Virus record (IMG/VR): IMGVR_UViG_2778261535_000006 | Location: 1-21,603 of that record | Origin: a virus | Lineage: Duplodnaviria; Heunggongvirae; Uroviricota; Caudoviricetes | Length of the DNA stretch: 21,603 nt | Direction: 5' to 3' (one strand) | Part shown: positions 1 to 19,725 of the stretch, in pieces | How positions within the stretch are numbered: position 1 is the stretch's first letter | Layout: each line of letters begins with the position of its first letter | Made by a program: the position numbers and the translations under genes | Notes under the pieces: generated by a model | What the model was told of the DNA's origin: nothing | Databases searched by the model: none | The model's input: the letters and a program-made list of their open reading frames with translations, nothing else

Positions 1-1511
1 ACATACTGATAGCCAGCAATTTTTTCCTGTAAGGATTTAATCTTACTTTTCTGCTCGTCAATTAACCTGTTCTGCTCCTCCAGAGCCTGCCGCGTCTTTT
101 CTTCATTATCTGCCGCTTCAGGAAGTGACATTGCAGACGTTTTCTGGCGAATTTCGTCGATTGTTGCGGCATACTGACGAGCTGATTCTCTGGCCTGCTC
201 CTGGTTCTGATACATTGTGTACCAGGCCGCCGCCCCCAGCATGACAAGTCCAGGCACACCACCAACCAGCCCCAGAGCACCACTTAACAACCGACTACTA
301 ACTGACGTAACGTTATTCAGCGTTGCCTGTGCCGCTGTTCTGGCAGCAATATTACGGGTAAGTGAAGCCTGTGCGGTTGCCAGTTTCGCTTCTGCTGCAG
401 CCTGTTTTTCTGTACCACGGGCAGCCACAACCGCCTGCTGCGCACGATACAATGCCGCCCGCGCTCTGGCTGTAGCTATCTGTGTCCCTCTGAGCTGTGC
501 CTCAGCAAGAGCCACTTCGTTTCTGGCAGCAGTGATTAACCCGGCAGTTGCAGAGCCCGCAGAGGACGCCATATTGCCAAAATATCGGGCTACACCAATT
601 GCAACCAGAGCTCCCGCCGCCGTGGCAACCGTATCAATATTATTCGCAACACCATTCATTATTCCGGTAAGCGTTTTCGTTGCACCGCTGGCATCATTCG
701 CACCACCAACCCAGGCCATAAAGGCGTTTTCAACTTTGGTTGCAGAGGATGATACGGTATCAGGCATGGCTGCATATTCATCCCGCAGCGTACCAAGCTG
801 GCTAATCAGTGCAGGAACAACCTTATCGGCGGTCAGCTTTCCATCATCCGCCATTGCCTTCAGATCTTTACGGGCAACCCCCATTCCTGCAGCCAGAGCA
901 CGAATAACACGATCACCGCTTTCATTTACTGAATTAAACTCTTCACCGCGCAGAACCCCTTGCGCCAGTGCCTGGCTGAACTGAGTGATCACCGAGCTGG
1001 CTTCCGCAGAACTGGCTCCGGACAATTTCAATCCTGTAGAAATGGCCTCGGTAACTTTCAGTACTTCCTCAGACCTGTAACCATATTCCCGCATAGAAGA
1101 AGCCGAACGTGCAAAAAGACTGGCGTTATCAGCAAAAGCAGTACCCGTTCTCTGGCTGATCGCCATCAATTCGCGCTGTGATGCCTGGAAATCATCGCTG
1201 GACTGCGTGGCCTGCTTCAGACGGGCATTTACTGAACTCCATTCATCCGCAAGAGATATAAGATGTCCAGTGGCAAAAGCACCGGCAAATGCGCCAGCCA
1301 TATTCAGTGCCGAAGACTTCGCCGTATTTATCTGCTCGGTCACTTCTGCCAGTGCTCGCCGCATATCACGGGATGCAGCTGCAGACTGTCGACCTCCGTT
1401 CTGCATGGTACGGTAGTACTCCTGTCCCATACGTGAAGCTCGCGCAATTTCTGACTGGAATGACTGCGAATTTGCCGAGATTTTTATAATCAGTTCGCGT
1501 AGTGACGCCAT
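1..1511 (-). CDS. Tail tape measure protein, N-terminal ~500 codons (gene continues past the window start)
   Basis: Minus-strand frame opens with ATG at 1511..1509 (MASLRELIIKISANSQSFQ...) preceded by GGAG 8 nt upstream, and runs without a stop to position 1. Ala/Gln-rich with a Gly-rich hydrophobic segment (GALGLVGGVPGLVMLGAAAW), directly downstream of the G/GT chaperone pair. Not in the ORF track because it is truncated by the window edge. Confidence 0.7.
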   Translation of the reverse strand, partial: MASLRELIIKISANSQSFQSEIARASRMGQEYYRTMQNGGRQSAAASRDMRRALAEVTEQINTAKSSALNMAGAFAGAFATGHLISLADEWSSVNARLKQATQSSDDFQASQRELMAISQRTGTAFADNASLFARSASSMREYGYRSEEVLKVTEAISTGLKLSGASSAEASSVITQFSQALAQGVLRGEEFNSVNESGDRVIRALAAGMGVARKDLKAMADDGKLTADKVVPALISQLGTLRDEYAAMPDTVSSSATKVENAFMAWVGGANDASGATKTLTGIMNGVANNIDTVATAAGALVAIGVARYFGNMASSAGSATAGLITAARNEVALAEAQLRGTQIATARARAALYRAQQAVVAARGTEKQAAAEAKLATAQASLTRNIAARTAAQATLNNVTSVSSRLLSGALGLVGGVPGLVMLGAAAWYTMYQNQEQARESARQYAATIDEIRQKTSAMSLPEAADNEEKTRQALEEQNRLIDEQKSKIKSLQEKIAGYQY

Positions 1512-1525
1512 TCTCGTTCTCCAGG

Positions 1526-1556
1526 CAAAAAAAAACCGCCGAAGCGGTTTTTGCTT
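1526..1556 (-). terminator. Intrinsic terminator after the moron gene, before the tape measure gene
   Basis: Stem AACCGC / GCGGTT with loop CGAA (1534..1549), flanked by an A-run (1526..1535) and a T-run (1548..1557); on the minus strand the hairpin is followed by nine U. Confidence 0.6.
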
Positions 1557-1898
1557 TTAAAGAAGCCCAGCCTTACGCCTTGCTTCTTCAAGATATTCAT
1601 CATCCGTTTTTTGCGAAACGGTACTATCAGGGTTATGTGTTAAATCACTACCGCAATGCTTACACTTAATGGCTTCTTCTTTGATCAACTCCGCACAGTA
1701 AGGGCATTTTTTCATGCCATTGCTCACCATTTGTTGCTCATGCGTTTTTTCATCTTTTTGGATTACAAGTGAATGAACCAGGGCAACGATAAAGAGTAAG
1801 GCTCCGTATATCCACCATCCCCAAAATGAACGCCCTTTACTTTGCGCGATAATAGCCGGAATTAACCCCAAGACTAGCGCAATAAGAATAACTTCCAT
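1557..1898 (-). CDS. Small membrane protein with C-terminal zinc-ribbon (CPYC...CKHC); moron-like accessory gene
   Basis: ATG at 1898 with AAGGAG 6 nt upstream; two N-terminal hydrophobic helices (VILIALVLGLIPAIIA, WIYGALLFIVALVHSLVI), then Cys-x2-Cys...Cys-x2-Cys. Inserted between the GT chaperone and tape measure genes and followed by its own terminator. Confidence 0.6.
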   Translation of the reverse strand: MEVILIALVLGLIPAIIAQSKGRSFWGWWIYGALLFIVALVHSLVIQKDEKTHEQQMVSNGMKKCPYCAELIKEEAIKCKHCGSDLTHNPDSTVSQKTDDEYLEEARRKAGLL

Positions 1899-1956
1899 CA
1901 ATATCTCCTTATTTACTTAATAAAAATCGGAATCATAATCCAGTAAAGTAAGAAGA

Positions 1957-2639
1957 TCATTGTGTCGCTGCAAATAATGCATTTTCAAACGCAGTGAACG
2001 GATCTTTAATATTATTTGCAGGAACGACCTCCCACTGAAGAATCGCTTCATTCAGTGGAACTTTGACACCCTGCGCCCCGTAAACTGCAGAAACTATCTG
2101 GGCAGCCCGGATATCAGCCCGCTCGTCACCCAGCGGGCTGATCCTGTCAAATTCTGCCCACATCATGATTTCCGATGCAGACATTTCCCGGCGTAACTCT
2201 GACAATGTGCGCCCCATCCTGAGCGCCAGCATCATCAGAAAACGAATACCCGGAAGTGCTACTTTTTTTTAATAACTTCAGCATCAGTGATCAGTTCCAG
2301 TGACTGACGAAGCAGTCGTGCATGTACCGGACCATATACTGTAAGTACCTGCTCCCGATCATCCGCTGAAAACACGGGTTGCATCCCGGTATCACACAGA
2401 ACATCGATGAACAGTTCAACATCCGCTTCAAGATTTCGGCGGGCACGCTCCGCAACTGATAACGGTGTATCATCATCTCCGGTTTTAACGATCTCCTGCC
2501 AACGTAACCAGGCTTCTGCAGAGGGTTCCCGTAATACAACCGTTGTACCTTCCCACTCAGGAACATCAACTGTTTTGTGGCGAAAACCAGACATCGTCGC
2601 CAGTGCCAGATTGCGGATATTTTTAGACATAGATTTCAT
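1957..2639 (-). CDS. Tail assembly chaperone G-T fusion product made by -1 programmed frameshift
   Basis: Heptamer A AAA AAG at minus 2268..2262, directly before the G stop codon (2261..2259). The -1 frame continues open (KKVALPGIRFLMMLALRMGR...) to the stop at 1957, the same frame as track ORF 1957..2235. Confidence 0.6.
2259..2639 (-). CDS. Tail assembly chaperone (lambda gpG-like)
   Basis: 126-aa ORF immediately downstream of the major tail gene, AAGGAGG RBS before ATG 2639, ends ...EVIKKK* on a slippery A-AAA-AAG run; position and size match G-type chaperones. Confidence 0.7.
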   Translation of the reverse strand: MKSMSKNIRNLALATMSGFRHKTVDVPEWEGTTVVLREPSAEAWLRWQEIVKTGDDDTPLSVAERARRNLEADVELFIDVLCDTGMQPVFSADDREQVLTVYGPVHARLLRQSLELITDAEVIKKK

Positions 2640-2644
2640 CCTCC

Positions 2645-3349
2645 TTAACTGACAGTTACGGTGCAGGAAGTGGAGGTCACCTTATTAACCGGGCTTGCTG
2701 AATCAGAAACCTCACAGGTATACGCACCGGCATCTCCGGATGTCACGGAGGCCTTGTTGAAAGTTGCCGATGTCTGCCCGGAAACTGGAGAGCTGCCTTT
2801 CTTCCAGACATATGAATAAGGAGGCACACCACCTGATGCCTCAACAGACATATTCAGCGTTTCACTGGCAGAAACCTGTAGTGTACTTTTCAAATCAGAG
2901 AGGAGTTTCAAAGGTTCAGTGGTCAGAGAGGGCTTTCCTTTCAGGCGCAGGGAAAATGTGGCAGCAACAACACCGTTGGTTCCCACAGACCAGGTATGCT
3001 GGCGAACTTCTGCCATAAAGGTAAATCCATTTCCTGACGGGAAAATAACTTTGAAACCGTATGTGGTGTCGTTGTCATAAGCACTACGCAACGCGTTCTG
3101 GGCAGCGTTGAGATAAAAGTTTCCTGACATGGAAATCTCTGAAGCAGCCCCAAGACCGTTGATATTCTCCTGCTCGGTAGAACACAGCGTAGTGACATCA
3201 ATATCCTGTTTCTGCCCGGCGGTAAACTGAACCTCTTTAATCGTACAGCTCAGTTCAAGAAAACTGGCAGAACTCAGCGTTTCTGCCGTTACCGGTGCAG
3301 ACGAGATCATGACTTTGGTCTGCTGAGAACGTTCAAAATTAGAGGACAT
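2645..3349 (-). CDS. Major tail protein with C-terminal Ig-like (Big_2-type) domain
   Basis: Start taken at ATG 3349 (MSSNFERS...) with GGAG 7 nt upstream rather than the track start at 3400. C-terminal ~80 aa Ser/Thr-rich with the Ig-like pattern PPYSYVWKKG...GAYTCEVSD...CTVTV. Sits between tail completion genes and the G/GT pair. Confidence 0.7.
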   Translation of the reverse strand: MSSNFERSQQTKVMISSAPVTAETLSSASFLELSCTIKEVQFTAGQKQDIDVTTLCSTEQENINGLGAASEISMSGNFYLNAAQNALRSAYDNDTTYGFKVIFPSGNGFTFMAEVRQHTWSVGTNGVVAATFSLRLKGKPSLTTEPLKLLSDLKSTLQVSASETLNMSVEASGGVPPYSYVWKKGSSPVSGQTSATFNKASVTSGDAGAYTCEVSDSASPVNKVTSTSCTVTVS

Positions 3350-3361
3350 ACTCGTCTCCTG

Positions 3362-3387
3362 AAAATAAAAAACCCGCCAGCGGCGGG
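3362..3387 (-). terminator. Terminator-like hairpin plus U-run immediately upstream of the major tail gene RBS
   Basis: Minus strand: CCCGCC-GCT-GGCGGG (3373..3387) followed by TTTTTTATTTT, then CAGGAG and ATG 3349. Confidence 0.45.
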
Positions 3388-3408
3388 TGGGTAAAATCAT
3401 TAACGACC

Positions 3409-3753
3409 TCAGGCAATTACCTGAAATTCAAGCGTAGCTCTGCTCAGACGGGAATCAGGATCATAACCCTGAGTTTTAGAAATAACGGATGGTGCCAGTT
3501 CCCTTACCGCATCAAGCGCCTGCTCACGGATATCATCTGCGTCATCAGGAGCCGTTGCCCAGATATCAATCTGCACTGTGATTCTGGATTCAGCCTGACC
3601 ATCAAGCACATCAGACGCGATGTCAGACACCACTGAAAACACCAGCCATGGTGGAAATACCGCAGGCTTTCCCTCCGTCAGCGGGACCACATAAGGATAA
3701 ACCTGCCCTCCGGCCAGTTTGGACAGAAGAGCATACAGCGTGGCTTCTCTCAT
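3409..3753 (-). CDS. Tail component, probable tail terminator / tail completion protein
   Basis: 114-aa ORF between the HK97 gp10-like gene and the major tail gene; call is by position in the head-tail joining block only. Confidence 0.45.
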   Translation of the reverse strand: MREATLYALLSKLAGGQVYPYVVPLTEGKPAVFPPWLVFSVVSDIASDVLDGQAESRITVQIDIWATAPDDADDIREQALDAVRELAPSVISKTQGYDPDSRLSRATLEFQVIA

Positions 3754-4220
3754 TTACTCAGCACCCCATCAATAGCCTGATTCATATGCTTCATGGCAAC
3801 CTGTGCTGCCAGCTCCTCTGTCATATCAAAGGCCGGGCGAATGAACGGATGGGCAGGCATATTGATAGTCCCCAGCTCCACGAAACGCCAGTAAAACGCG
3901 TTTCGCGGATCGCTGGCTTTCATGCTGTTATCACTGTTTCCGGTTCGCAGATTCCGCCCACGAATGTGGACACCAGAGATAATTTCACCACGACGCCGTG
4001 AACGCTGAGTCAGAATAACCACGTTTTTCTTCAGTTTTCCGGTTCGCTCTGGCGCATGGTCAATAACCGCCTCCCGGATAACCTCTGCTCCGGCACGGGA
4101 GGCATCGCGAAGCACCTTATTACTCTCTGCTCTGCTGAGAAGTTCCAGATCTCTTGCAATATCCGCCAGGCCAGAAAAATCCAGACTAAAATCCGTCACA
4201 TTCCACCTCTCTGGCTGCAA
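3750..4220 (-). CDS. Head-tail joining protein (HK97 gp10-like family)
   Basis: 156-aa ORF overlapping its neighbours by 4 and 25 nt; size and position fit this family. Confidence 0.5.
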   Translation of the reverse strand: MQPERWNVTDFSLDFSGLADIARDLELLSRAESNKVLRDASRAGAEVIREAVIDHAPERTGKLKKNVVILTQRSRRRGEIISGVHIRGRNLRTGNSDNSMKASDPRNAFYWRFVELGTINMPAHPFIRPAFDMTEELAAQVAMKHMNQAIDGVLSK

Positions 4221-4534
4221 AGTATTTCAAGCCTGGAGGATCGTGCGTCCGGGATCGGCGGCCCGTCGATATTCAGAATGGCTCCCTTGAATGCCCCTGT
4301 CAGCACTTTCAGACGTGAGGCGGCCGTCACATCGCGCCGAAATCGCATCCAGACTCTTACTGTTGTCTGCGCGGTTTCCGCACCGCCCGATATACGTTCC
4401 CGCCCACTGATCCCCTTAACCTCTGCCCATACCGTAGCCCCCTCTTTCAGGGTTTCCTCCGGGTGACCGGAAGGGGTACGGGAGGTCGTAATATTCAGAA
4501 TAACCACGCGATCACGTAATCTTCCTGCCTGCAT
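4196..4534 (-). CDS. Head closure / head-tail adaptor protein
   Basis: 112-aa ORF between the gp6-like connector and the gp10-like gene; positional call. Confidence 0.5.
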   Translation of the reverse strand: MQAGRLRDRVVILNITTSRTPSGHPEETLKEGATVWAEVKGISGRERISGGAETAQTTVRVWMRFRRDVTAASRLKVLTGAFKGAILNIDGPPIPDARSSRLEILCSQRGGM

Positions 4535-4543
4535 GAAATCCTC

Positions 4544-4849
4544 CTATGTTCCGGGATGAAACCGATACATTCGGAGTCCGGTATAGAAAAAATCAGGTAC
4601 AGCATCCTGCATTTCCCTGTTCTCGTACCAGTAGCCAACCAGTTGCATAAGACGCAGCTTTATCAGCGGTGTTATTACAAGCCCGGTCGTATCCTGATCA
4701 GGAACAGTTTCATCGTGAAGTGTCCGGTTTAAAAACTTTTCAGCCTCTTCTCTGGCTGCTGCCAGATACATCATAAGAAGTGCATTCTCCTGTTCATTGT
4801 CATCATCAATCCGGCACTGAACACGAAGCTCTTCCAGAGTAGGCATCAT
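4544..4849 (-). CDS. gp6-like head-tail connector protein
   Basis: N-terminus MMPTLEELRVQCRIDDDNEQENALLMMYLAAAREEAE matches the characteristic start of gp6-type connectors (LEE..K.HLRID...E..LI...AAAR.Y.E). Confidence 0.6.
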   Translation of the reverse strand: MMPTLEELRVQCRIDDDNEQENALLMMYLAAAREEAEKFLNRTLHDETVPDQDTTGLVITPLIKLRLMQLVGYWYENREMQDAVPDFFYTGLRMYRFHPGT

Positions 4850-4860
4850 TTGGGCTACCT

Positions 4861-5112
4861 CTAAGAATGCTGTTTTTTAGCCTTATCAGATACCCGTGCA
4901 ACAGGTGTTCTCTTATCAGAAACAATCCCTGCTGCAGTGGCAATTTCACGTACCCGTTCGGGTAATTCTTTATCTTCATACTCACCAGCACGAATGATCT
5001 CAACGCGCATACCGTCCGGTGACCATTTCAGATCTTGTTTCAGGATCATGATTCTTTCACCTGTCAGAACAGGGGCGCAATTCAGCGCCCCTGAGTGATT
5101 ACGCCGCTGCAA
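4861..5112 (-). CDS. Hypothetical small protein downstream of the capsid remnant (start uncertain; an internal ATG near 5049 is possible)
   Basis: ORF only, weak RBS; kept because it fills the gap between the capsid remnant and the connector gene. Confidence 0.3.
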   Translation of the reverse strand: MQRRNHSGALNCAPVLTGERIMILKQDLKWSPDGMRVEIIRAGEYEDKELPERVREIATAAGIVSDKRTPVARVSDKAKKQHS

Positions 5113-5710
5113 TCTTCAGCAGTTTGATGGCCTGCGAATCGACCAGCATGCCGCCGGTGCGCTTGGTGGTATAAAAACCGACAAACGGTTTATTGGTGTA
5201 CGGGTCGCGCAGAATGCGGGTGCCGATACGGTCAACGATGGTGTAACCCCGTTTGAAGTTACCAAATGCAATAGCTTTCGCATCCGCAGCGATATCCGGC
5301 ATCTGCTCGTTTTCAGCGATACCGTAACCCGCCAGAGAGGACGGTTGCCCCAGTTCCAGCCCCGGACGCCACAGATAATTACCCTCGGTGTCTTTCAGCA
5401 GACGGATGGCAAACAGGCTGTTGTTGTTCATCATGAACTTCGCACCAGTGCGGTGTGCCTTACGCAGCGTGTAAATCAGTTTGATAACGGCGTCTGCGGT
5501 CACCGTCGTCGCTTCGCCGGATACAATATGCTGAAGTTTGCCGAACGCACGAACATTATCGGTTTCATCGGTGGATTCATACGCCAGGAACCCTTTCGGC
5601 TTCTTGGTACCATCGCCGGTGGTAAAGGCAATTTCTTCCTGTTCGGCAAATTCGGTTGCCAGCTCGCTGTTGATCCAGGCTTCCACGTTGAAAAAGGCAT
5701 CATCCAGCAT
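5099..5710 (-). pseudogene. Major capsid protein (HK97 fold), C-terminal ~200 codons only
   Basis: Begins mid-protein at the HK97-family motif E.EE.AF..GDG..KP.GFL ([21 protein letters not shown]) and ends ...FVGFYTTKRTGGMLVDSQAIKLLKIAAA. Upstream in this frame is terminase DNA read out of frame, so the N-terminal half of the capsid protein is absent. Confidence 0.6.
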
Positions 5711-7416
5711 TTTCTGGGTGGCCTGCGGTCTTCTTTCTCGTACAGCATGGCTCTGCCAACCGCCATAATCAGCGCAACTGCACCATCGATTTTGTTTTCC
5801 GCCTGCTCTTTGACGGGCTTCACCACATCATCGTTACCCGGAATGGTTTTGCCGACCACGTTGCCGATACACCAGGTCATGATGGGATTGCCATCATGAT
5901 GAAAGCGCCCCGATTCAATTGCCGCTTCCAGCTCTTTCATCGGGTCGGACATGTTGGTGTAGTTCTGAATGATAGTGATGGGGTTCAGGTCTTCATCAGC
6001 AAGGTCATGTGACAACCCGGTCGCCCCGAAGGGGTCGATGGGTGACTCACTGACCGGGCTGATTTTGTTCGCCGCTTTGGCCTCCTCGAGGATGTAGCGA
6101 TAATCCACCTCCGCACCATCGGTAACGGTCAGAACGCCCATTTCCACCCATTTCTGAAAGCGTTCGGCTGTCCGTCGATCTTCATTTTTCTCGACGCTGT
6201 ACACCGTGTCATACGGTACCCAGAAACGCGGGGCCACACTGTAGTAATGCGTTTTACCGTCAATCTCGCGGGTATAAAGTCGCGCCATGCTGTTCATATC
6301 CAGCTTACGCGCCAGGTCAAAGGCCAGAATGCACGGCTGCCCCTCGAACTGCTCAAGGGTCAGTGATTTATCCTCGCAGCTCTGCCAGCTCACCAGGTTG
6401 AAATACGCCGAACGCGCCGACACCCAGATATTGAGGTGTTTTGTTTTAAAGACGTTTGCCAGACGGGCGTTATTTTTCGCACGCTGCTGCTGACTTAACA
6501 AAAATTCGCGATAAACCGACACGCCAATATTCGGGTTAGCTTTTTCCAGCACCTGCGGGTCGGTCCAGTCATCGCCTTCGTCAACGGTATAGATGATCCC
6601 GAACAGTTCATCGTTGGGTACCGACCCGTTGAGCATCTCGATAACTTCCCGTCGCTTGTCGTAGCACGGCCCCTCAATGTTGTACCCGGCAGTAGTAATG
6701 GCCCACATCAGTGGCTGACGTCGCGCCCCCATCCCGGTAAGCATCGTGGTGTAAAGCGCATCGGTGGCGTGCTCGTGATATTCATCCACCACCGCACAGT
6801 GGGGTGATGAACCATCACCGGGGTTACCGATCAGCGGTTCAAACCGCGCGCCATCCTCCGGACGATTCATGTTTGAGGCGTTAACCTCAATCCCGAACGC
6901 TTCCGTCAGCATGGGTGTGCGTTTACACATCAGTCTTGCCGGACGAAAGACTTCCCATGCCTGTTTCTCCGTCGTGGCACCGGAATACACTTCCGCGCCG
7001 AACTCGTTATCACAGGCAAAACAATACAGGGCGACACCGGCAGAGATTGCTGATTTGCCGTTCTTACGGGGGATTTCGGTATACACCTCCCGGAAGCGGC
7101 GCAGCCGGGAGCCTTTATTGACCCAGCCAAACGCGCAGCAGATCACAAAGAGCTGCCACGGCTCCAGCGTGATGGGCATCCTCTTGAATGCCCACTCACC
7201 CTTGGTGTGCGGCAACAGCTGAATAAATTTGGCGGCCCGTTCAGCCAGGTCCTTGTCGAAGCGGTAACGAAACGACTTACTTTTTTCCGCCATCAGGTCA
7301 TCAAGATGGCGCTGGCAGGCCTGAATCACAAACTGGCAGGCCACAATCTTTCCGCGCACAACATCACGGGCATACTGATTGGCAGCATTTACGTTGGGGT
7401 AAGATTTCCGGCTCAT
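5500..7416 (-). CDS. Terminase large subunit; 3' end is abnormal and reads out of frame ~70 codons into the capsid remnant
   Basis: 638-aa ORF, ATGA overlap with the small terminase stop. Terminase-like through ...[22 protein letters not shown], then low-complexity Pro/Arg/Trp-rich text ([19 protein letters not shown]...) that is capsid DNA in the wrong frame. Confidence 0.8.
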
Positions 7417-7907
7417 GATTCGATAATTTTCAGAAACGGGTTAGTGGCTTTCTTCTGCCCCGCCAGGCCAATCAGACGCTGGCGGCTGCTGGGGTCGAGT
7501 CCGAGCATTGCCCCCGTACTGCTCATCTCGGACTCCTGTTCTTTTTTGGCGGTCAGCTCCGGATTTTTGACCATGCCGCCCATTGCACCGGTGATGGTGT
7601 TGCCCTGTCTGGCAATATTTTTCACAGCACGTCGCCAGAACTCATAGGCTACGCACCACCGCTCAAGCACTGCGAGGTCAGTCACGCACAGCAGGCCCTG
7701 ACCGCAGAGTTCTTTGGTTGTCAGTTGCCACATGATCGTGGCGAGAGGGAGCTCTTCTTCAGCGAACCACTCCGGTGGCTCAACACCTTTGATGGGCGTA
7801 AAAACGGGTTCATCTTTGTTCAGGGCTCGCTTGCCGGGGTTTCCGGCCAGCGCCTTGCGCGCCGTTGGCTTGGGGCGACGCCCGGAACGCCCCGCCGTTC
7901 CAGCCAT
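7413..7907 (-). CDS. Terminase small subunit (P27-like family)
   Basis: Start taken at ATG 7907 ([18 protein letters not shown]...) with AGGAG 9 nt upstream; stop overlaps the large terminase start; downstream of HNH. Confidence 0.65.
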
Positions 7908-7957
7908 ATGCGGCACTCCTGGTTAAATTTCATTTTTCGCGGGTATATAAAAACGAT

Positions 7958-8006
7958 GGGGCGGGCAGTCCTGAAGGCGTCAGGTCACAGAGATTTGACC
8001 CGCCCC
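7958..8006. repeat. GC-rich nested palindrome between HNH and small terminase genes; candidate cos site or terminator
   Basis: GGGGCGGG (7958..7965) and CCCGCCCC (7999..8006) are perfect inverted repeats enclosing the inner palindrome CCTGA-aggcg-TCAGG (7970..7984). On the minus strand it is followed by a U-rich tract. Confidence 0.35.
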
Positions 8007-8032
8007 TCCCCTCTGGCAGTGGGAACTGGTTC

Positions 8033-8383
8033 TTACTTCAGCCGTTCACGAGCCGTTTTCGCCTTATGACACGGCCAGCACAGGCTCTGCAGATTGCTGT
8101 CTGAATCTGTGCCGCCATGCGCTTTAGGAATGATGTGGTCAACGGTTTTCGCCTCACGCACCACACCAGCACGCAGACATAACTGACATAAACCTTTGTC
8201 ACGCTTCAGGACGCGCACGCGGATACCATCCCACTTCGAACCATAACCGCGCTGATGACGGGATTGTCCTGGCTTGTATTGCTTCCAGCCTTCACTTTTG
8301 TGGCTTTCGCAATAGCCTGACGGGTCAGTTGTGGTATGGCGGCAGCCGCGAACACGGCAGGCTTTTGGGGTTCGTGGTGGCAT
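8033..8383 (-). CDS. HNH endonuclease (terminase-associated)
   Basis: Start taken at ATG 8383 (MPPRTPKACRVRGC...) with GGAG 7 nt upstream. Cys-rich with HNH motif ...VDHIIPKAHGGTDSDSNLQSLCWPCH; located just upstream of the terminase genes. Confidence 0.8.
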   Translation of the reverse strand: MPPRTPKACRVRGCRHTTTDPSGYCESHKSEGWKQYKPGQSRHQRGYGSKWDGIRVRVLKRDKGLCQLCLRAGVVREAKTVDHIIPKAHGGTDSDSNLQSLCWPCHKAKTARERLK

Positions 8384-8392
8384 GCTGGCTCC

Positions 8393-8418
8393 AATAAAAA
8401 GCCCCGCGACGCGAGGCT
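8393..8418 (-). terminator. Intrinsic terminator-like hairpin after the small membrane protein gene
   Basis: Minus strand: GCCUCGC-guc-GCGGGGC stem followed by UUUUUAUU, immediately before the HNH RBS. Confidence 0.4.
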
Positions 8419-8448
8419 TAGACAGAAAAAACACCGGATAAGATCTGG

Positions 8449-8652
8449 TCATTCTTCCTTTTTAATAATGACTTCTCGAGGGCGCAATTGTTGGATAGCA
8501 CGACAAATACAATATGGAATAACTGCCCATGCTACTCCCATTGCTGCACCTGCAGCCTGTTGTGGAGCACTCTGAGCACCGAAAACCCCGAGGATTCCTT
8601 CAATAAATCCAATAGCACTACACAAAAGACTGATGACCCAGAGAATTTTCAT
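8449..8652 (-). CDS. Small hydrophobic membrane protein, function unknown
   Basis: ATG 8652 with AGGAG ~9 nt upstream; 67 aa with two hydrophobic segments (ILWVISLLCSAIGFIEGILGVFGA, AAMGVAWAVIPYCICRAI). Confidence 0.5.
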   Translation of the reverse strand: MKILWVISLLCSAIGFIEGILGVFGAQSAPQQAAGAAMGVAWAVIPYCICRAIQQLRPREVIIKKEE

Positions 8653-8769
8653 AAACCCAAACTCCTTTTAAATAAACACATTACTAGGATAATTCTCATA
8701 AAATGTTAGTAAAGTATTTTCAGGAAAATAGCGTATCACTGCCTATTTTTGACACTGATGCTGGGATAA

Positions 8770-9195
8770 TTATTCCGGTCGCTGGAGTTGCTCATGATGA
8801 TACAGAGCGAGAATCAGGTCATAAGACCCTTGCCTGTCTTTGTAACCAGTTTTATCAACCAATTCAGCTTTACTGATTCCGGGTAAATCAAGAATCAGAT
8901 TCGCAACTTCAATTGCCCTTTGGTACAACTTACCGCCCTTTTTCTCCCCATGCACTGGTTTTACATTCTTGAGGTAACCGCTATCCGCCAGGGCGAGAAA
9001 TGTTGCCCTTGGGCATATCTTCTTTCTTGACGATTCGCTTTCTGTAACCTCTGCGACAGCTGCATCCCATGCATCACGAGGAGTCATTGAGCTATCAGCC
9101 ACCAAATGATAAGCGATTAAAGCAGCGTGAGCGTATTGAGACATAATGCATCCATATACAAAAATCTTATGATAAGACTTTTCTAATATGAACAC
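8770..9195 (-). CDS. Hypothetical protein (start ambiguous: track start 9195 or internal ATG 9144)
   Basis: ORF directly downstream of Rz/Rz1 in the lambda bor position; no motif I can name. Confidence 0.45.
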
Positions 9196-9626
9196 TGTGA
9201 TCTCACATACTCTTGCAGGCCATTCAATTGGTTAGTTATGGTTTCGATGCGCTCTCTGAGAACGAAATAATCCCGTTGAGCGGTGTCAGTAAGTCTGGGG
9301 CTGGAAGCATCATCCACGCCGGAGGCGGCGGTGGTTTTATGCATGTCGGGACAGACTGCTTTGACGTGCAGCCACTTACGACCAGCAGAAACATCAGCAC
9401 GAAGACTTTCGATAGTCGCGTTAGCATCAGCAAGCTCCTTTGTATATCTGGCATCGAGTTCAGCTACATTACGTTGACGTTTCTGCATGTCAGCGATAAT
9501 GGATGCGGCCTTATCGCGCTGTTCTTTGTAGGCGATGGCGTTATCACGGTAATGATTAACAGCCCATGACAGGCAGGCGATGATACAAATAACCAGAGCG
9601 GAGATAATCGCAGTTACTCTGCTCAT
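9183..9626 (-). CDS. Rz: Rz i-spanin
   Basis: [39 protein letters not shown]...[19 protein letters not shown] closely matches lambda Rz as I recall it; N-terminal TM helix plus coiled coil; follows the endolysin gene. Confidence 0.9.
9236..9427 (-). CDS. Rz1: Rz1 o-spanin lipoprotein, embedded in the +1 frame of Rz
   Basis: Signal peptide and lipobox ([13 protein letters not shown]), proline-rich [10 protein letters not shown] and ...TPLNGIIS, matching lambda Rz1; start taken at internal Met (MLTRLSK...) rather than the track start. Confidence 0.8.
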
Positions 9627-10099
9627 ACCTCAATCTCACTGACCGTTCCGCCAGCTTCTTTGAATTTTGCAATCAGGCTGTCAGCCTTATGCTCGAACTG
9701 ACCATAACCAGCGCCCGGCAGTGAAGCCCAGATATTGCTGCAACGGTCGATAGCCTGACGAATATCACCGCGATCAATCATCGGTAAAGCGCCACGCTCT
9801 TTAATCTGCTGCAGTGCAACAGCGTCCTGGCTTTTCGGAGAGAAGTCTTTCAGCCCTAGCTGCTTGCGGTAGGCATCCCACCAACGGGAAAGAAGCTGGT
9901 AACGTCCAGCTGCAGTTGATTTAAGTTGCGGGTTTAGCGTGACAAGTTTGCGAGGGTGATCGGAGTAATCAGTGAAGAGTTCGCCACCGACAATAACGTC
10001 ATAACCGTGATTGCGGGTTGGCTGCCGTCCGTTATCCGTTCCTTCTGACCACGCCAACATATCGAGGAAAGCTTTACGCTGAGGATTAAGATTTTGCAT
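9623..10099 (-). CDS. R: Endolysin, lambda R-type lytic transglycosylase
   Basis: ...[50 protein letters not shown]... is nearly identical to lambda R as I recall it. Confidence 0.9.
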
Positions 10100-10403
10100 T
10101 TTTCACCCCTGTCAGTCGTTCCCAGAAGTACGTCAGTGCAACCGAACCCATCGCACCACTAATCCCCGCCGTCGCGAGAATCATGTAAATGCTGAATCCA
10201 CTTTCGATACTGATCAGGCCACCAATAACACCGGTGAATCCCGATACCACTATCTGAGCCAGAGCATTTATCCAGCTCCACGTTGCTTTACTCTGCTTCA
10301 CATCTATCAGGTAGCGGACCAGACCGCCCCAACCTGCGATGATCAGCAAAACGAGCCAGAACGCTCCGGCAAGGCTCTCTTTTTCGTGCATATGAATAGC
10401 CAA
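10086..10403 (-). CDS. Holin (three predicted TM segments, not lambda S-type)
   Basis: 105 aa, three hydrophobic segments, charged C-terminus, immediately upstream of and overlapping the endolysin gene; Met1 and Met5 (MAIHMHEKE) could form a holin/antiholin dual start. Confidence 0.65.
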   Translation of the reverse strand: MAIHMHEKESLAGAFWLVLLIIAGWGGLVRYLIDVKQSKATWSWINALAQIVVSGFTGVIGGLISIESGFSIYMILATAGISGAMGSVALTYFWERLTGVKNAKS

Positions 10404-17433: not shown

Positions 17434-18297
17434 ATGGATTGTGACGCTTTACAGGATATAAAAATCTCTCTTAGGTATGACGGAAAAGATGCTTTAAATC
17501 ATGAAATAGATTTGAACTGCCTAGGAGAATCCCTAAAGGGTTTTTCTAAAGTTCTCTCAACAGCAGCTTCTTTCTCTGTTACACAAAAATATAGTAAATA
17601 CATTAATTATCAGGAAGTTAAGGTTTACGCACGCGAAGCAAAAGCTAACTGCTTTACTCTTGAAGCAGTTCTTAACTTCGCCACTCAGAACCAGTTGTTC
17701 TCGGGGATCGCCGCAACTATACTTGGCGCAATACTACAATATATTTTTGCGAGAAATTCTAACAAGAAAGATGAAATGAAAGCTTTGCAGCAGTCACTTG
17801 AAAAGGCCATAGAGGCACTAGGAAACAAGGATGCTGGAACCATTGATAAGTTGATCTCTTTGATTGACCGAATGGCTGTAGAGCTTCGCCCCTCTGTAAG
17901 GCAGGCAGTATCACCTATTGGTAATACTTGCGATCAGATAAGTGTTGCAACAAATGTTGACGGCTGCCTTCTAAAAGTTAACGAGAGAGATAAAGCTGAA
18001 ATTGATAGGCTTGATGATGATGAAGTTCTCGGTCTTCGTGAGTATCGTGCTTTTCTTACAGAATTTGATGCACAAAATATGACAGCTAAAATAATTTTAG
18101 ATGGTGATGACTCAAAAAAGAGAATCACTGCTGAAATTAGCGATCCAGCTGCAGGAAAGAAGAATAACCCGTATATTAGAGCTCTTAGTGCATATATATC
18201 AACCAAAGGTGATCCATCTGCAGTATTCACTATAACCGCAAAGGCTACTGTTAAAAAAGGCCAGATAAACAGGTTATTTATTGTAGATGCGAAATGA
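17434..18297 (+). CDS. Hypothetical 287-aa protein, AT-rich, in the rexAB position downstream of the repressor
   Basis: Clean ORF with its own terminator; one central hydrophobic segment ([19 protein letters not shown]) followed by a predicted helical Lys/Glu-rich region; no motif I recognise. Spot counts on three 60-nt lines give 40%, 42% and 28% GC. Confidence 0.7.
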
Positions 18298-18301
18298 TTT
18301 C

Positions 18302-18328
18302 CCCGGCCGTCGTGCCGGGTTTTCTTTT
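18302..18328 (+). terminator. Intrinsic terminator ending the repressor operon
   Basis: CCCGGC-cgtcgt-GCCGGG followed by TTTTCTTTT, 5 nt after the stop codon of the 287-aa gene. Confidence 0.65.
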
Positions 18329-18450
18329 GCCTCCCCTCATCACACACCGTTCAAAAAACCACCATAACCCCCGCTTCAGTTATCGCTATGCGATGCAAGT
18401 CACAAAATTAATTCCTTTTGCTATCAAACAGTTAATATCAAAATGCATCA

Positions 18451-18496
18451 ATCAATAGCAATAAGTATTGATATCACTAATAGCAATAGCTATTAT
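18451..18496 (+). promoter_or_regulatory. Putative pL with OL-like operators
   Basis: -35 TTGATA (18468..18473), 17-nt spacer, -10 TATTAT (18491..18496). Palindromes TAATAGC-aata-GCTATTA (18478..18495) and ATCAATA-gcaataag-TATTGAT (18451..18472) overlap the promoter. Confidence 0.5.
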
Positions 18497-18773
18497 CACC
18501 ATGTCGCAACAACACAACGATACGGCAACCACCTGATTCGCCGTTGCGATGACCGCTTAGATCCGCAGCTTGAATTTCAGCAGGCTCCGGGGAGTGCGAG
18601 GGGTGAAGCGGACGCGTGAACGTCGGTGTGACCAGCTGAAATCAACTCAACACTTCATACCTCAGTCGCTTCAACGAGGCGGCTTAGTTATGACAACCGG
18701 CGGCCATCCACCGCCTGAATACGCGCAGAAGTCTCTATATGTTCAGCAGCCCAGCTTACGGGCAGGAGTTTTT

Positions 18774-18980
18774 ATGGTTCATCAACATTACGGAACTCAG
18801 ACCGTTAATCGCGGTGCCGTCCGGCCAGGTATGCTGGTTAAACACAAAGATGGTACCTGGACGGCATCAGCTAATTTGCGCGGTCGGCTTTACTTGCATC
18901 GCGGCATCGAACGAACGTACACAAAAGATTTGCTCGTGGAGGTTTACCTGAATGGTACTGGCGGTGGTCTGAGCCACTAA
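18774..18980 (+). CDS. Hypothetical 68-aa protein; the frame is open back to a TTG at 18570 with an Arg-rich N-terminus
   Basis: ATG 18774 has a strong RBS (GCAGGAG, 6 nt). The upstream in-frame extension encodes RLRGVRGVKRTRERR, reminiscent of an N-type arginine-rich motif, but the start codon is unproven. Confidence 0.35.
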   Translation: MVHQHYGTQTVNRGAVRPGMLVKHKDGTWTASANLRGRLYLHRGIERTYTKDLLVEVYLNGTGGGLSH

Positions 18981-18984
18981 CTAC

Positions 18985-19291
18985 TCACTTGTTTGGGCCG
19001 TGTGGAGCCAAAGCAAATTCAAGGTTGTAGATACTCCCATCAGGGGCTTTGAAATCAACCTCAAACCGAGATGGCGGATTGAATGGATCGAGTACATTTT
19101 CTGCTACGCATGTAGATCTCCAATTGATATGGCCTTTGCCAAGCGAGCGAGATTCCCACCAAGCTCTCCAGGTCTGGTCTTGCGGTTGATCACTCCCCTT
19201 TTCCCTTACATACCAATGATTCTTTTTCGACTGCTTACCCATTTCTGCGGTTGGGTACATCGGAGAAGACTTTAACTTATCAATCAGCATT
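18985..19291 (-). CDS. Hypothetical Trp-rich protein (~101 aa) antisense to the pL operon
   Basis: ATG 19291 with AAGGTG 7 nt upstream; reads more like a protein than the overlapping plus-strand ORF 19000..19275; no family recognised. Confidence 0.4.
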
Positions 19292-19428
19292 CTAGACACC
19301 TTATTTATCAGATTTTGAGCAAGACATAGTGTGATCCAACATTTTGATTAATCAAGCGAGTTCATTCAAACAACTATGCAGTTAACGCACTGTCTGGATC
19401 CGCACATCAAAATTTCAGGAGTTTATCC

Positions 19429-19725
19429 ATGAACGCTTATTACATTCAGGATCGTCTTGAGGCTCAGAGCTGGGCGCGTCACTACCAGCAGATCGCCCGT
19501 GAAGAGAAAGAGGCAGAACTGGCAGACGACATGGAAAAAGGCCTGCCCCAGCACCTGTTTGAATCGCTATGCATCGATCATTTGCAACGCCACGGGGCCA
19601 GCAAAAAAGCCATTACCCGTGCGTTTGATGACGATGTTGAGTTTCAGGAGCGCATGGCAGAACACATCCAGTACATGGTTGAAACCATTGCTCACCACCA
19701 GGTTGATATTGATTCAGAGGTATAA
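19429..19725 (+). CDS. gam: Gam (RecBCD inhibitor), short form
   Basis: [60 protein letters not shown]... matches the lambda Gam C-terminal 98 aa; CAGGAG RBS. Confidence 0.95.

Follow-up and report, generated by a model that had tools for sequence, protein, structure and literature searches.

Evidence that a single illegitimate deletion fused the large terminase and capsid genes of a lambdoid Escherichia coli prophage

Introduction

The locus considered here raises the question of how the large terminase gene of a lambdoid prophage came to be joined directly to the C-terminal half of a major capsid protein (MCP) gene, and what kind of element is left behind by such a join. The DNA that was analysed, referred to here as the window, is the whole 21.6-kb contig NMHT01000076.1 of the draft assembly GCA_002511955.1, and it ends inside the tape measure gene on one side and just past exo on the other, so that the distal tail genes and int/xis lie beyond it. 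It has a temperate-phage module order with a repressor and has lost essential virion genes, as is found in defective (cryptic) prophages. An initial sequence-only reading proposed that one deletion, lying within 5690-5790, had removed the portal gene, the protease gene and the N-terminal capsid region and had left the remaining modules intact. We have followed this proposal by comparing the locus with intact relatives, with protein families and with sequence collections.

Results

Position and structure of the deletion junction

The best-matching intact relative is a prophage of E. coli FDAARGOS_497 (L003; NZ_CP033850, 1891761-1903051), which carries across the gap a 577-aa large terminase (TerL), YmfR, the portal protein, an HK97-family prohead protease and a 401-aa MCP. 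Window 1-5728 aligns by blastn with L003 10502-16229 at 99.2% identity and free of gaps, and window 5725-10087 aligns with L003 18924-23288 at 96.4% identity. The 4-nt overlap between the two alignments contains a gapped end, and the junction was set by ungapped comparison, in which the left parent reads ...CCTGCGG/GTTACC..., the right parent reads ...CAGCGTG/TCTTCT... and the window reads ...CCTGCGG/TCTTCT.... This confirms the proposed terminase-capsid fusion and places the break between 5728 and 5729, within late genes on the minus strand, with 2,699 bp missing compared with the intact relatives (blastn and anchor alignment to L003 and to the two SfV-like elements L002 and L006). Both flanks are anchored in L002 and L006, where the gap measures exactly 2,699 bp, and the same length follows for L003 from the coordinates once a one-base blastn end artefact is corrected; a single exact gap against three intact relatives is what one deletion of the portal, protease and N-terminal capsid sequences predicts. 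In the terminase gene the break lies 2 nt inside codon 563, and in the capsid gene it coincides with the boundary between codons 192 and 193; between these points the intact relatives have the final 14 codons of TerL, ymfR, the genes for the portal and the prohead protease, and capsid codons 1-192. The breakpoint was mapped against close relatives that are 96-99% identical, the exact parent being absent from the collections searched. The only other terminase-side indel compared with L003 is a single intergenic nucleotide at 8012. Coordinates are given in Table 1.

Table 1. Features at and around the deletion junction, with their positions in the window and the basis for each assignment.
Feature	Position	Strand	Basis
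G/T tail-assembly chaperone pair	2259-2639 and 1957-2235	-	Standard lambdoid feature
Lambda-like tail tube protein, C-terminal Ig-like domain, full length	2645..3349	-	Pfam; 99.6% over 234 aa
Tail completion protein gp17, full length	3409..3753	-	Pfam PF11367; 98.2%
HK97 gp10-like protein, full length	3750..4199	-	Pfam PF04883; 99.3%
Head closure/completion protein, full length	4196..4534	-	Pfam PF05521; 100% aa identity
gp6-like head-tail connector, full length	4544..4849	-	Pfam PF05135; 100% aa identity
62-aa conserved hypothetical gene downstream of the capsid gene, full length	4861..5049	-	tblastn 98.4%; phrog_1020
Major capsid protein remnant, codons 193-401 + stop	5099..5728	-	Pfam Phage_capsid; tblastn 99.0% to MCP 193-401
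Out-of-frame extension of the terminase ORF, 75 codons + stop	5500..5727	-	Translation compared with intact TerL C-terminus
Deletion junction	5728..5729	.	Base 5728 (G) is the sole base common to both parental flanks
Native large terminase part, residues 1-563 of 577	5728..7416	-	Pfam PF03354 + PF20441; tblastn 99.8%; HK97 TerL 6z6d
Small terminase subunit (TerS, P27 family), full length, 164 aa	7413..7907	-	Pfam Terminase_4; 100% aa identity to L003 TerS
Terminase-associated HNH endonuclease, full length	8033..8383	-	Pfam HNH; 94.8% over 116 aa

In the comparison of the parental flanks no direct repeats were found at the breakpoints beyond the 1 shared nucleotide plus an imperfect GCG(G/TG), and the suggested look for short direct repeats at the junction thus turns up one base only. 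Repeat-mediated homologous deletion was ruled out on these grounds, and the single shared base at the ends identifies the deletion as illegitimate rather than homologous. Deletion mediated by an insertion sequence was also ruled out, as there is no IS sequence at or near the junction, though some relatives do carry IS2/IS3. These relatives (H69-H72, e.g. NZ_CP145646 and NZ_AP041117) have IS2/IS3-family insertions in the stretch that aligns to window 1500-10400, head region included, and if the insertions interrupt head genes they would represent an independent route to inactivating the same module.

The terminase reading frame

The 638-aa ORF at 5500-7416 (minus strand) contains a TerL_ATPase domain at residues 86-256 and a TerL_nuclease domain at residues 268-558 in Pfam, and both catalytic domains are complete, with the nuclease covering positions 4-284 of the 286 in the profile. 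The HK97 TerL structure 6z6d aligns to residues 80-556 of a full-length TerL homologue. Alignment to the full-length proteins of the intact relative, which had been suggested as the way to locate the break, shows that residues 1-563 of the 577 in TerL are kept at 99.8% identity (tblastn), together with residues 193-401 of the 401 in MCP. The C-terminal 14 residues of TerL (TLSDHIESYGIRSL) have been lost, and 75 unrelated residues stand in their place. The number 2,699 is not divisible by three, and the terminase ORF therefore continues into the capsid DNA one base out of frame, through 75 nonsense codons for which no homology is to be expected, until it stops at 5500; the out-of-frame extension that had been recognized from the sequence is thus real, but it is 75 codons long rather than about 70.

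A natural C-terminus of this kind was ruled out, as homologues are 577 aa long and have a different ending. The intact TerL family ends in ...YEKEDTLSDHIESYGIRSL directly before the stop codon, and the window protein lacks this native C-terminus. In a 90% cluster of 8,998 terminases the full-length proteins among the 15 members listed are all 577 aa, and among the cluster members listed the 638-aa form is on record only for the window contig and for a contig from the Logan collection. A literature search on the role of the terminase C-terminal tail in HK97 yielded nothing specific. The idea that the 14 lost residues contact the portal goes back to what work on lambda gpA is said to indicate, and it is not used as evidence here.

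The capsid remnant and the missing head genes

The 203-aa ORF at 5099-5710 (minus strand) matches the Phage_capsid profile (PF05065) at positions 86-280 of 280 only (E=6e-59). In tblastn with the protein of the intact relative, MCP residues 193-401 of 401 are kept at 99.0% identity, whereas MCP residues 1-192 have no counterpart in the window. A full-length homologue of this MCP aligns along its whole length to the RcGTA MCP structure 6tb9 (E=1.4e-73), and by position in the HK97 fold the 192 lost N-terminal residues presumably comprise the delta/scaffold domain, the N-arm and the E-loop. The estimate that about 200 C-terminal residues are covered by the capsid frame holds for the ORF, which has 203 residues counted from its first in-frame ATG (at 5710, corresponding to the internal Met-199), but 209 capsid residues survive, with the homology beginning 6 codons upstream of that methionine and running as far as the breakpoint. 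The gene call in the source assembly instead uses the ATG at 5503, giving a 134-aa product that overlaps the terminase stop as ATGA. The remnant is without a native start or ribosome-binding site.

The possibility that the 203-aa ORF is an independent small capsid-like gene was also considered and ruled out, as it is 99% identical to residues 199-401 of the 401-aa MCP, that is, to the C-terminal half of the protein. The family phrog_15928 ("major head protein", 185 positions) matches the 203-aa fragment from end to end; it covers only the C-terminal half of the MCP, and it therefore provides no argument for a separate gene. The 134-aa remnant as called falls in a 90% cluster of 423 members that carry the annotation of partial MCP, come from E. 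coli and Salmonella and in some cases lie on long contigs of 218-298 kb; truncated copies of this capsid gene may therefore recur.

A complete HK97/SfV-type head module is absent from the window, which has no portal gene, no protease gene and a shortened MCP. Tblastn with the portal, prohead protease and YmfR proteins of L003 gave no match at E<=1e-3 anywhere in the window, and neither a portal gene, a protease gene nor a full-length capsid gene is found elsewhere within the 21.6 kb. In agreement with the earlier statement that no ORF is large enough for a portal, the largest ORF besides the terminase encodes a 339-aa Rep O-like protein.

The other late genes and the early region

The late genes of the left half all lie on the minus strand, and eleven of them apart from TerL and MCP (TerS, HNH, the 62-aa ORF, connector, closure, gp10, gp17, tube, chaperone, T and zinc-ribbon) are full length, with 94.8-100% amino acid identity to L003 in tblastn. 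That these genes remain full length and 95-100% identical to the relative indicates that the deletion is recent and single. G/T chaperone pairs of the kind found here are normally joined by programmed -1 frameshifting. Between the tail-assembly gene T and the tape measure gene there is a gene for a 114-aa protein (1557-1901, minus strand) that has hydrophobic segments towards its N-terminus and a zinc ribbon at its C-terminus, belongs to phrog_8436 (function unknown) and is 100% conserved in the intact relative; it is probably a moron inside the tail operon. An Rz1 lipoprotein ORF with the lipobox LVVSGC is nested out of frame in Rz (9236-9454 and 9183-9626, respectively, minus strand). That all other modules are intact has been verified for those genes that the window contains and, in L005, for the tape measure and a minor tail gene, and no further.

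The right half is a standard lambdoid early region, with an S24/HTH cI-like repressor, a Cro-like YdaS, YdaT and O-/P-like replication genes, and further with NinE, YbcO, RusA, YlcG, Q, holin, lysozyme and Rz/Rz1; on the opposite side of cI, a DUF7946/DUF7947 gene in the rex position is followed by Gam, Bet and Exo. Other E. coli genomes are about 97% identical over 84-92% of the length of the early region and differ at the moron positions. The gene in the rex position (17434-18297, plus strand) lies immediately downstream of the cI-like repressor, where lambda has rexAB, and encodes a 287-aa DUF7946+DUF7947 protein of phrog_5147 (function unknown), with a weak PADLOC match to PDC-S42 (E=1.5e-4). 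This gene is a candidate for an exclusion or defence moron expressed in the lysogen. A defence function for the neighbouring morons was rejected, as their PADLOC matches were only weak. Related prophages have DUF3037 or DUF3800 genes somewhere in the early region instead of the DUF7946 gene. Between the DUF7946 gene and gam (18300-19430) no Pfam-recognised gene was found. This interval includes a 136-aa ORF (18570-18980, plus strand) with an arginine-rich N-terminus (RGVKRTRERR), which judged by this composition could be an N-like antiterminator, and on the opposite strand a 104-aa ORF (18985-19299) with no family match.

Discussion

We interpret the element as a lambdoid siphovirus prophage with an HK97/SfV-type head module that has undergone one recent, intramolecular, illegitimate deletion of 2,699 bp and is head-assembly-defective as a result, and we put the probability of this reading at about 0.9. 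In the mechanism that we propose, a single illegitimate recombination event between ends sharing one base would have removed the 2,699 bp within one prophage, by a RecA-independent route such as replication slippage or microhomology end-joining. The deletion itself is shown directly by the alignments, and so is the loss of the C-terminal 14 residues of TerL, of ymfR, of the portal and prohead protease genes and of 192 N-terminal capsid residues.

The assembly of HK97-like heads requires the portal, the protease/scaffold and a full-length capsid protein, and it is from this established requirement that we infer the phenotype. Lacking a portal, a protease/scaffold and an assembly-competent capsid protein, the element would form no procapsids, and the terminase would then have no docking target, whatever its altered C-terminus does. 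By itself the element would thus be unable to assemble procapsids or to package DNA, though on induction it would presumably still derepress, replicate, make tails and lyse the cell. Infectious virions are expected to be absent on condition that no other prophage in the cell provides heads. This type of head module occurs widely, with matches in 1,593 of the 5,426 complete E. coli genomes, and complementation of the defect by a helper prophage whose head module is almost the same is therefore possible.

One important consideration is therefore whether the headless element has been retained for a function, either as a producer of F-type tailocin-like particles or as a helper-dependent, satellite-like element whose cos DNA is packaged in the heads of a co-resident prophage, an alternative that we regard as unlikely. 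All visible genes for tail, lysis, regulation and replication are intact, and the TerS is 100% identical to that of the intact relatives, which makes recognition of its cos by the terminase of a related helper plausible. If this alternative were true, the DNA of the headless element would be packaged in SfV/HK97-type helper heads joined to its own siphovirus tails, and mobilisation by a helper or the release of free tails would provide a snapshot of the first step on the way from phage to satellite or tailocin. Indeed, the end state of the window resembles that of tailocins (F-type pyocins and others) in having a tail module, a lysis cassette and a repressor without a functional head. Tailocins, however, are conserved from strain to strain and no longer have any terminase, connector or replication genes, whereas the window keeps TerS, TerL, the connector, head-closure and O/P genes and its lesion is specific to one lineage. 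Phage satellites (PICI, cf-PICI or P4-like) are small, have no tail or lysis genes and bring hijacking functions of their own, and the comparison likewise sets them apart from the window, in which the tail operon is full as far as it is visible and the lysis cassette is full. That the terminase, connector, head-closure and replication genes are undecayed speaks for a recent accident, not for the streamlining of a tailocin or satellite; signs of selection are absent, and a junction that is as rare as this one, known from one NCBI draft and one Logan contig family and absent from IMG/VR, is not what retention for a function would lead one to expect.

The single-deletion reading instead places the element with the defective prophages of E. 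coli. The cryptic prophages DLP12, Rac, Qin and e14 of K-12 have been disabled in a similar manner, with other modules remaining. The pool of Sp prophages in O157 Sakai is comparable to the window in that deletions and insertions have disabled morphogenesis genes while other modules were kept, though the O157 and K-12 cryptic prophages usually have multiple and older defects, whereas the element in the window has a single clean lesion and its other genes are undecayed. Defective prophages of O157 have been reported to be inducible and to be released as particulate DNA, some of them being transferred, and they can be rescued via interactions between prophages (PMC2669165), which speaks in favour of functional retention.

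The comparison with intact phages bears on a second alternative, in which the fusion would have arisen by illegitimate recombination between two co-resident prophages, for example an SfV-like myovirus and a lambda-like siphovirus. The prophage of E. coli FDAARGOS_497/ECONIH1/ST648 has the same gene order and orientation as the window from the lysis cassette through HNH, TerS, TerL, the connector, the tube, the chaperones and the zinc-ribbon gene to the tape measure, with 96-99% nucleotide identity and with the shared late proteins 95-100% identical, but it has the 2,699 bp, and past window 10087 its early region has a different mosaic composition. The SfV-like phages SfV, SfI, SfII, SfIV, ST64B and vB_EcoM-689R6 share the head organisation (HNH, TerS, TerL, a small W-like gene, portal, protease and MCP), with TerS/TerL 96-98% identical to the window at the nucleotide level (80% in ST64B); they differ from it in being myoviruses with sheath and tube genes, in having complete head modules and in a capsid side that is only 93-96% identical. 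The Stx-converting phage phi467 (LN997803) and phiP27 have, like the window, a siphovirus-type late operon, with a homologous C-terminal half of MCP, connector and tail (about 90-96% nucleotide identity for phi467 and 83% for phiP27), but unlike the window they have a full head module, a different terminase allele without a megablast match to the window terL, and stx genes. Among phage records, the terminase side of the junction (from about 5725 rightwards) matches SfV-like phages at 96-98% and the capsid side (to 5728) matches phi467-type siphoviruses at about 95%. In each of these groups TerL is followed in turn by a small gene, the genes for the portal and the prohead protease, and a 401-aa capsid gene. 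The HNH-TerS-TerL-MCP module of the window (5099-8383) is 93-98% identical at the nucleotide level to that of the sheath-bearing SfV-like myoviruses (L002, L006), and the tail module of the window is that of a lambda-like siphovirus; a head module shared in this way between elements with different tails is clear evidence of module exchange between tail morphotypes.

A join of two prophages would agree with this 93-98% identity of the head module to SfV-like myoviruses, and also with the whole-alignment identities to L003, which are 96.4% on the terminase side and 99.2% on the tail side. In 300-nt bins, however, the shift in identity falls at the boundary between the capsid gene and the genes downstream of it and not at the junction, on either side of which the divergence from L003 is alike, at 96.3-96.7% identity for the capsid remnant and 97-98% for the adjacent terminase. 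This similarity fits one parental head-module allele that has lost an internal piece and not a join of unrelated elements. The genes have precisely the order, orientation and spacing of one module from which 2,699 bp have been taken out, and a join of two prophages would in addition need the chromosome between them to have been deleted or rearranged, which makes this origin very improbable.

An assembly artefact, in which the contig falsely joins the terminase 3' end to the middle of the capsid gene of a prophage that is really intact, might be suspected since the window is a contig of a draft assembly and its junction is absent from the 5,426 complete E. coli genomes, the GTDB species representatives, IMG/VR and the JGI metagenomes, but it is hardly credible, because an independent Logan contig, assembled from another run (SRR25655956) and present in 5 samples, matches 9,432 nt of the window, junction included, at 100% identity, and because flanks that share 1 nt would, by the logic of de Bruijn assemblers, offer a k-mer graph no common path for a false join. 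The two observations together establish the deletion as physical. The exact 638-aa fusion protein is also encoded on the Logan contig of SRR25655956, and the Logan contig extends past the end of the window in the tape measure gene, so that it includes this gene in full (1,080 aa) together with a minor tail gene. The junction was found in one NCBI draft and one Logan contig family, and it was not found in the 5,426 complete E. coli genomes, in one genome per GTDB species, in IMG/VR or in JGI metagenome contigs; with an internal gap permitted, 28 of the complete E. coli genomes match at least 80% of window 1500-10400. The deletion marks one rare E. coli lineage.

The element belongs to the familiar class of defective lambdoid prophages, its nearest intact relatives being the FDAARGOS_497/ECONIH1/ST648 prophage and, as regards the head module, the SfV-like phages. 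What has happened to it is real and ordinary pseudogenisation. For annotation, this means that the 638-aa "terminase" and the 134- or 203-aa "capsid protein" are pseudogene products of one deletion, and that programs that call prophage completeness should score the element as defective. The 40-nt junction provides a specific marker for the lineage that carries it. A new biological question would arise only if helper-dependent mobilisation or tailocin activity were demonstrated. Finally, the locus offers a clean and datable example of a prophage turning defective, through one illegitimate deletion at a 1-nt microhomology, with nothing else decayed.
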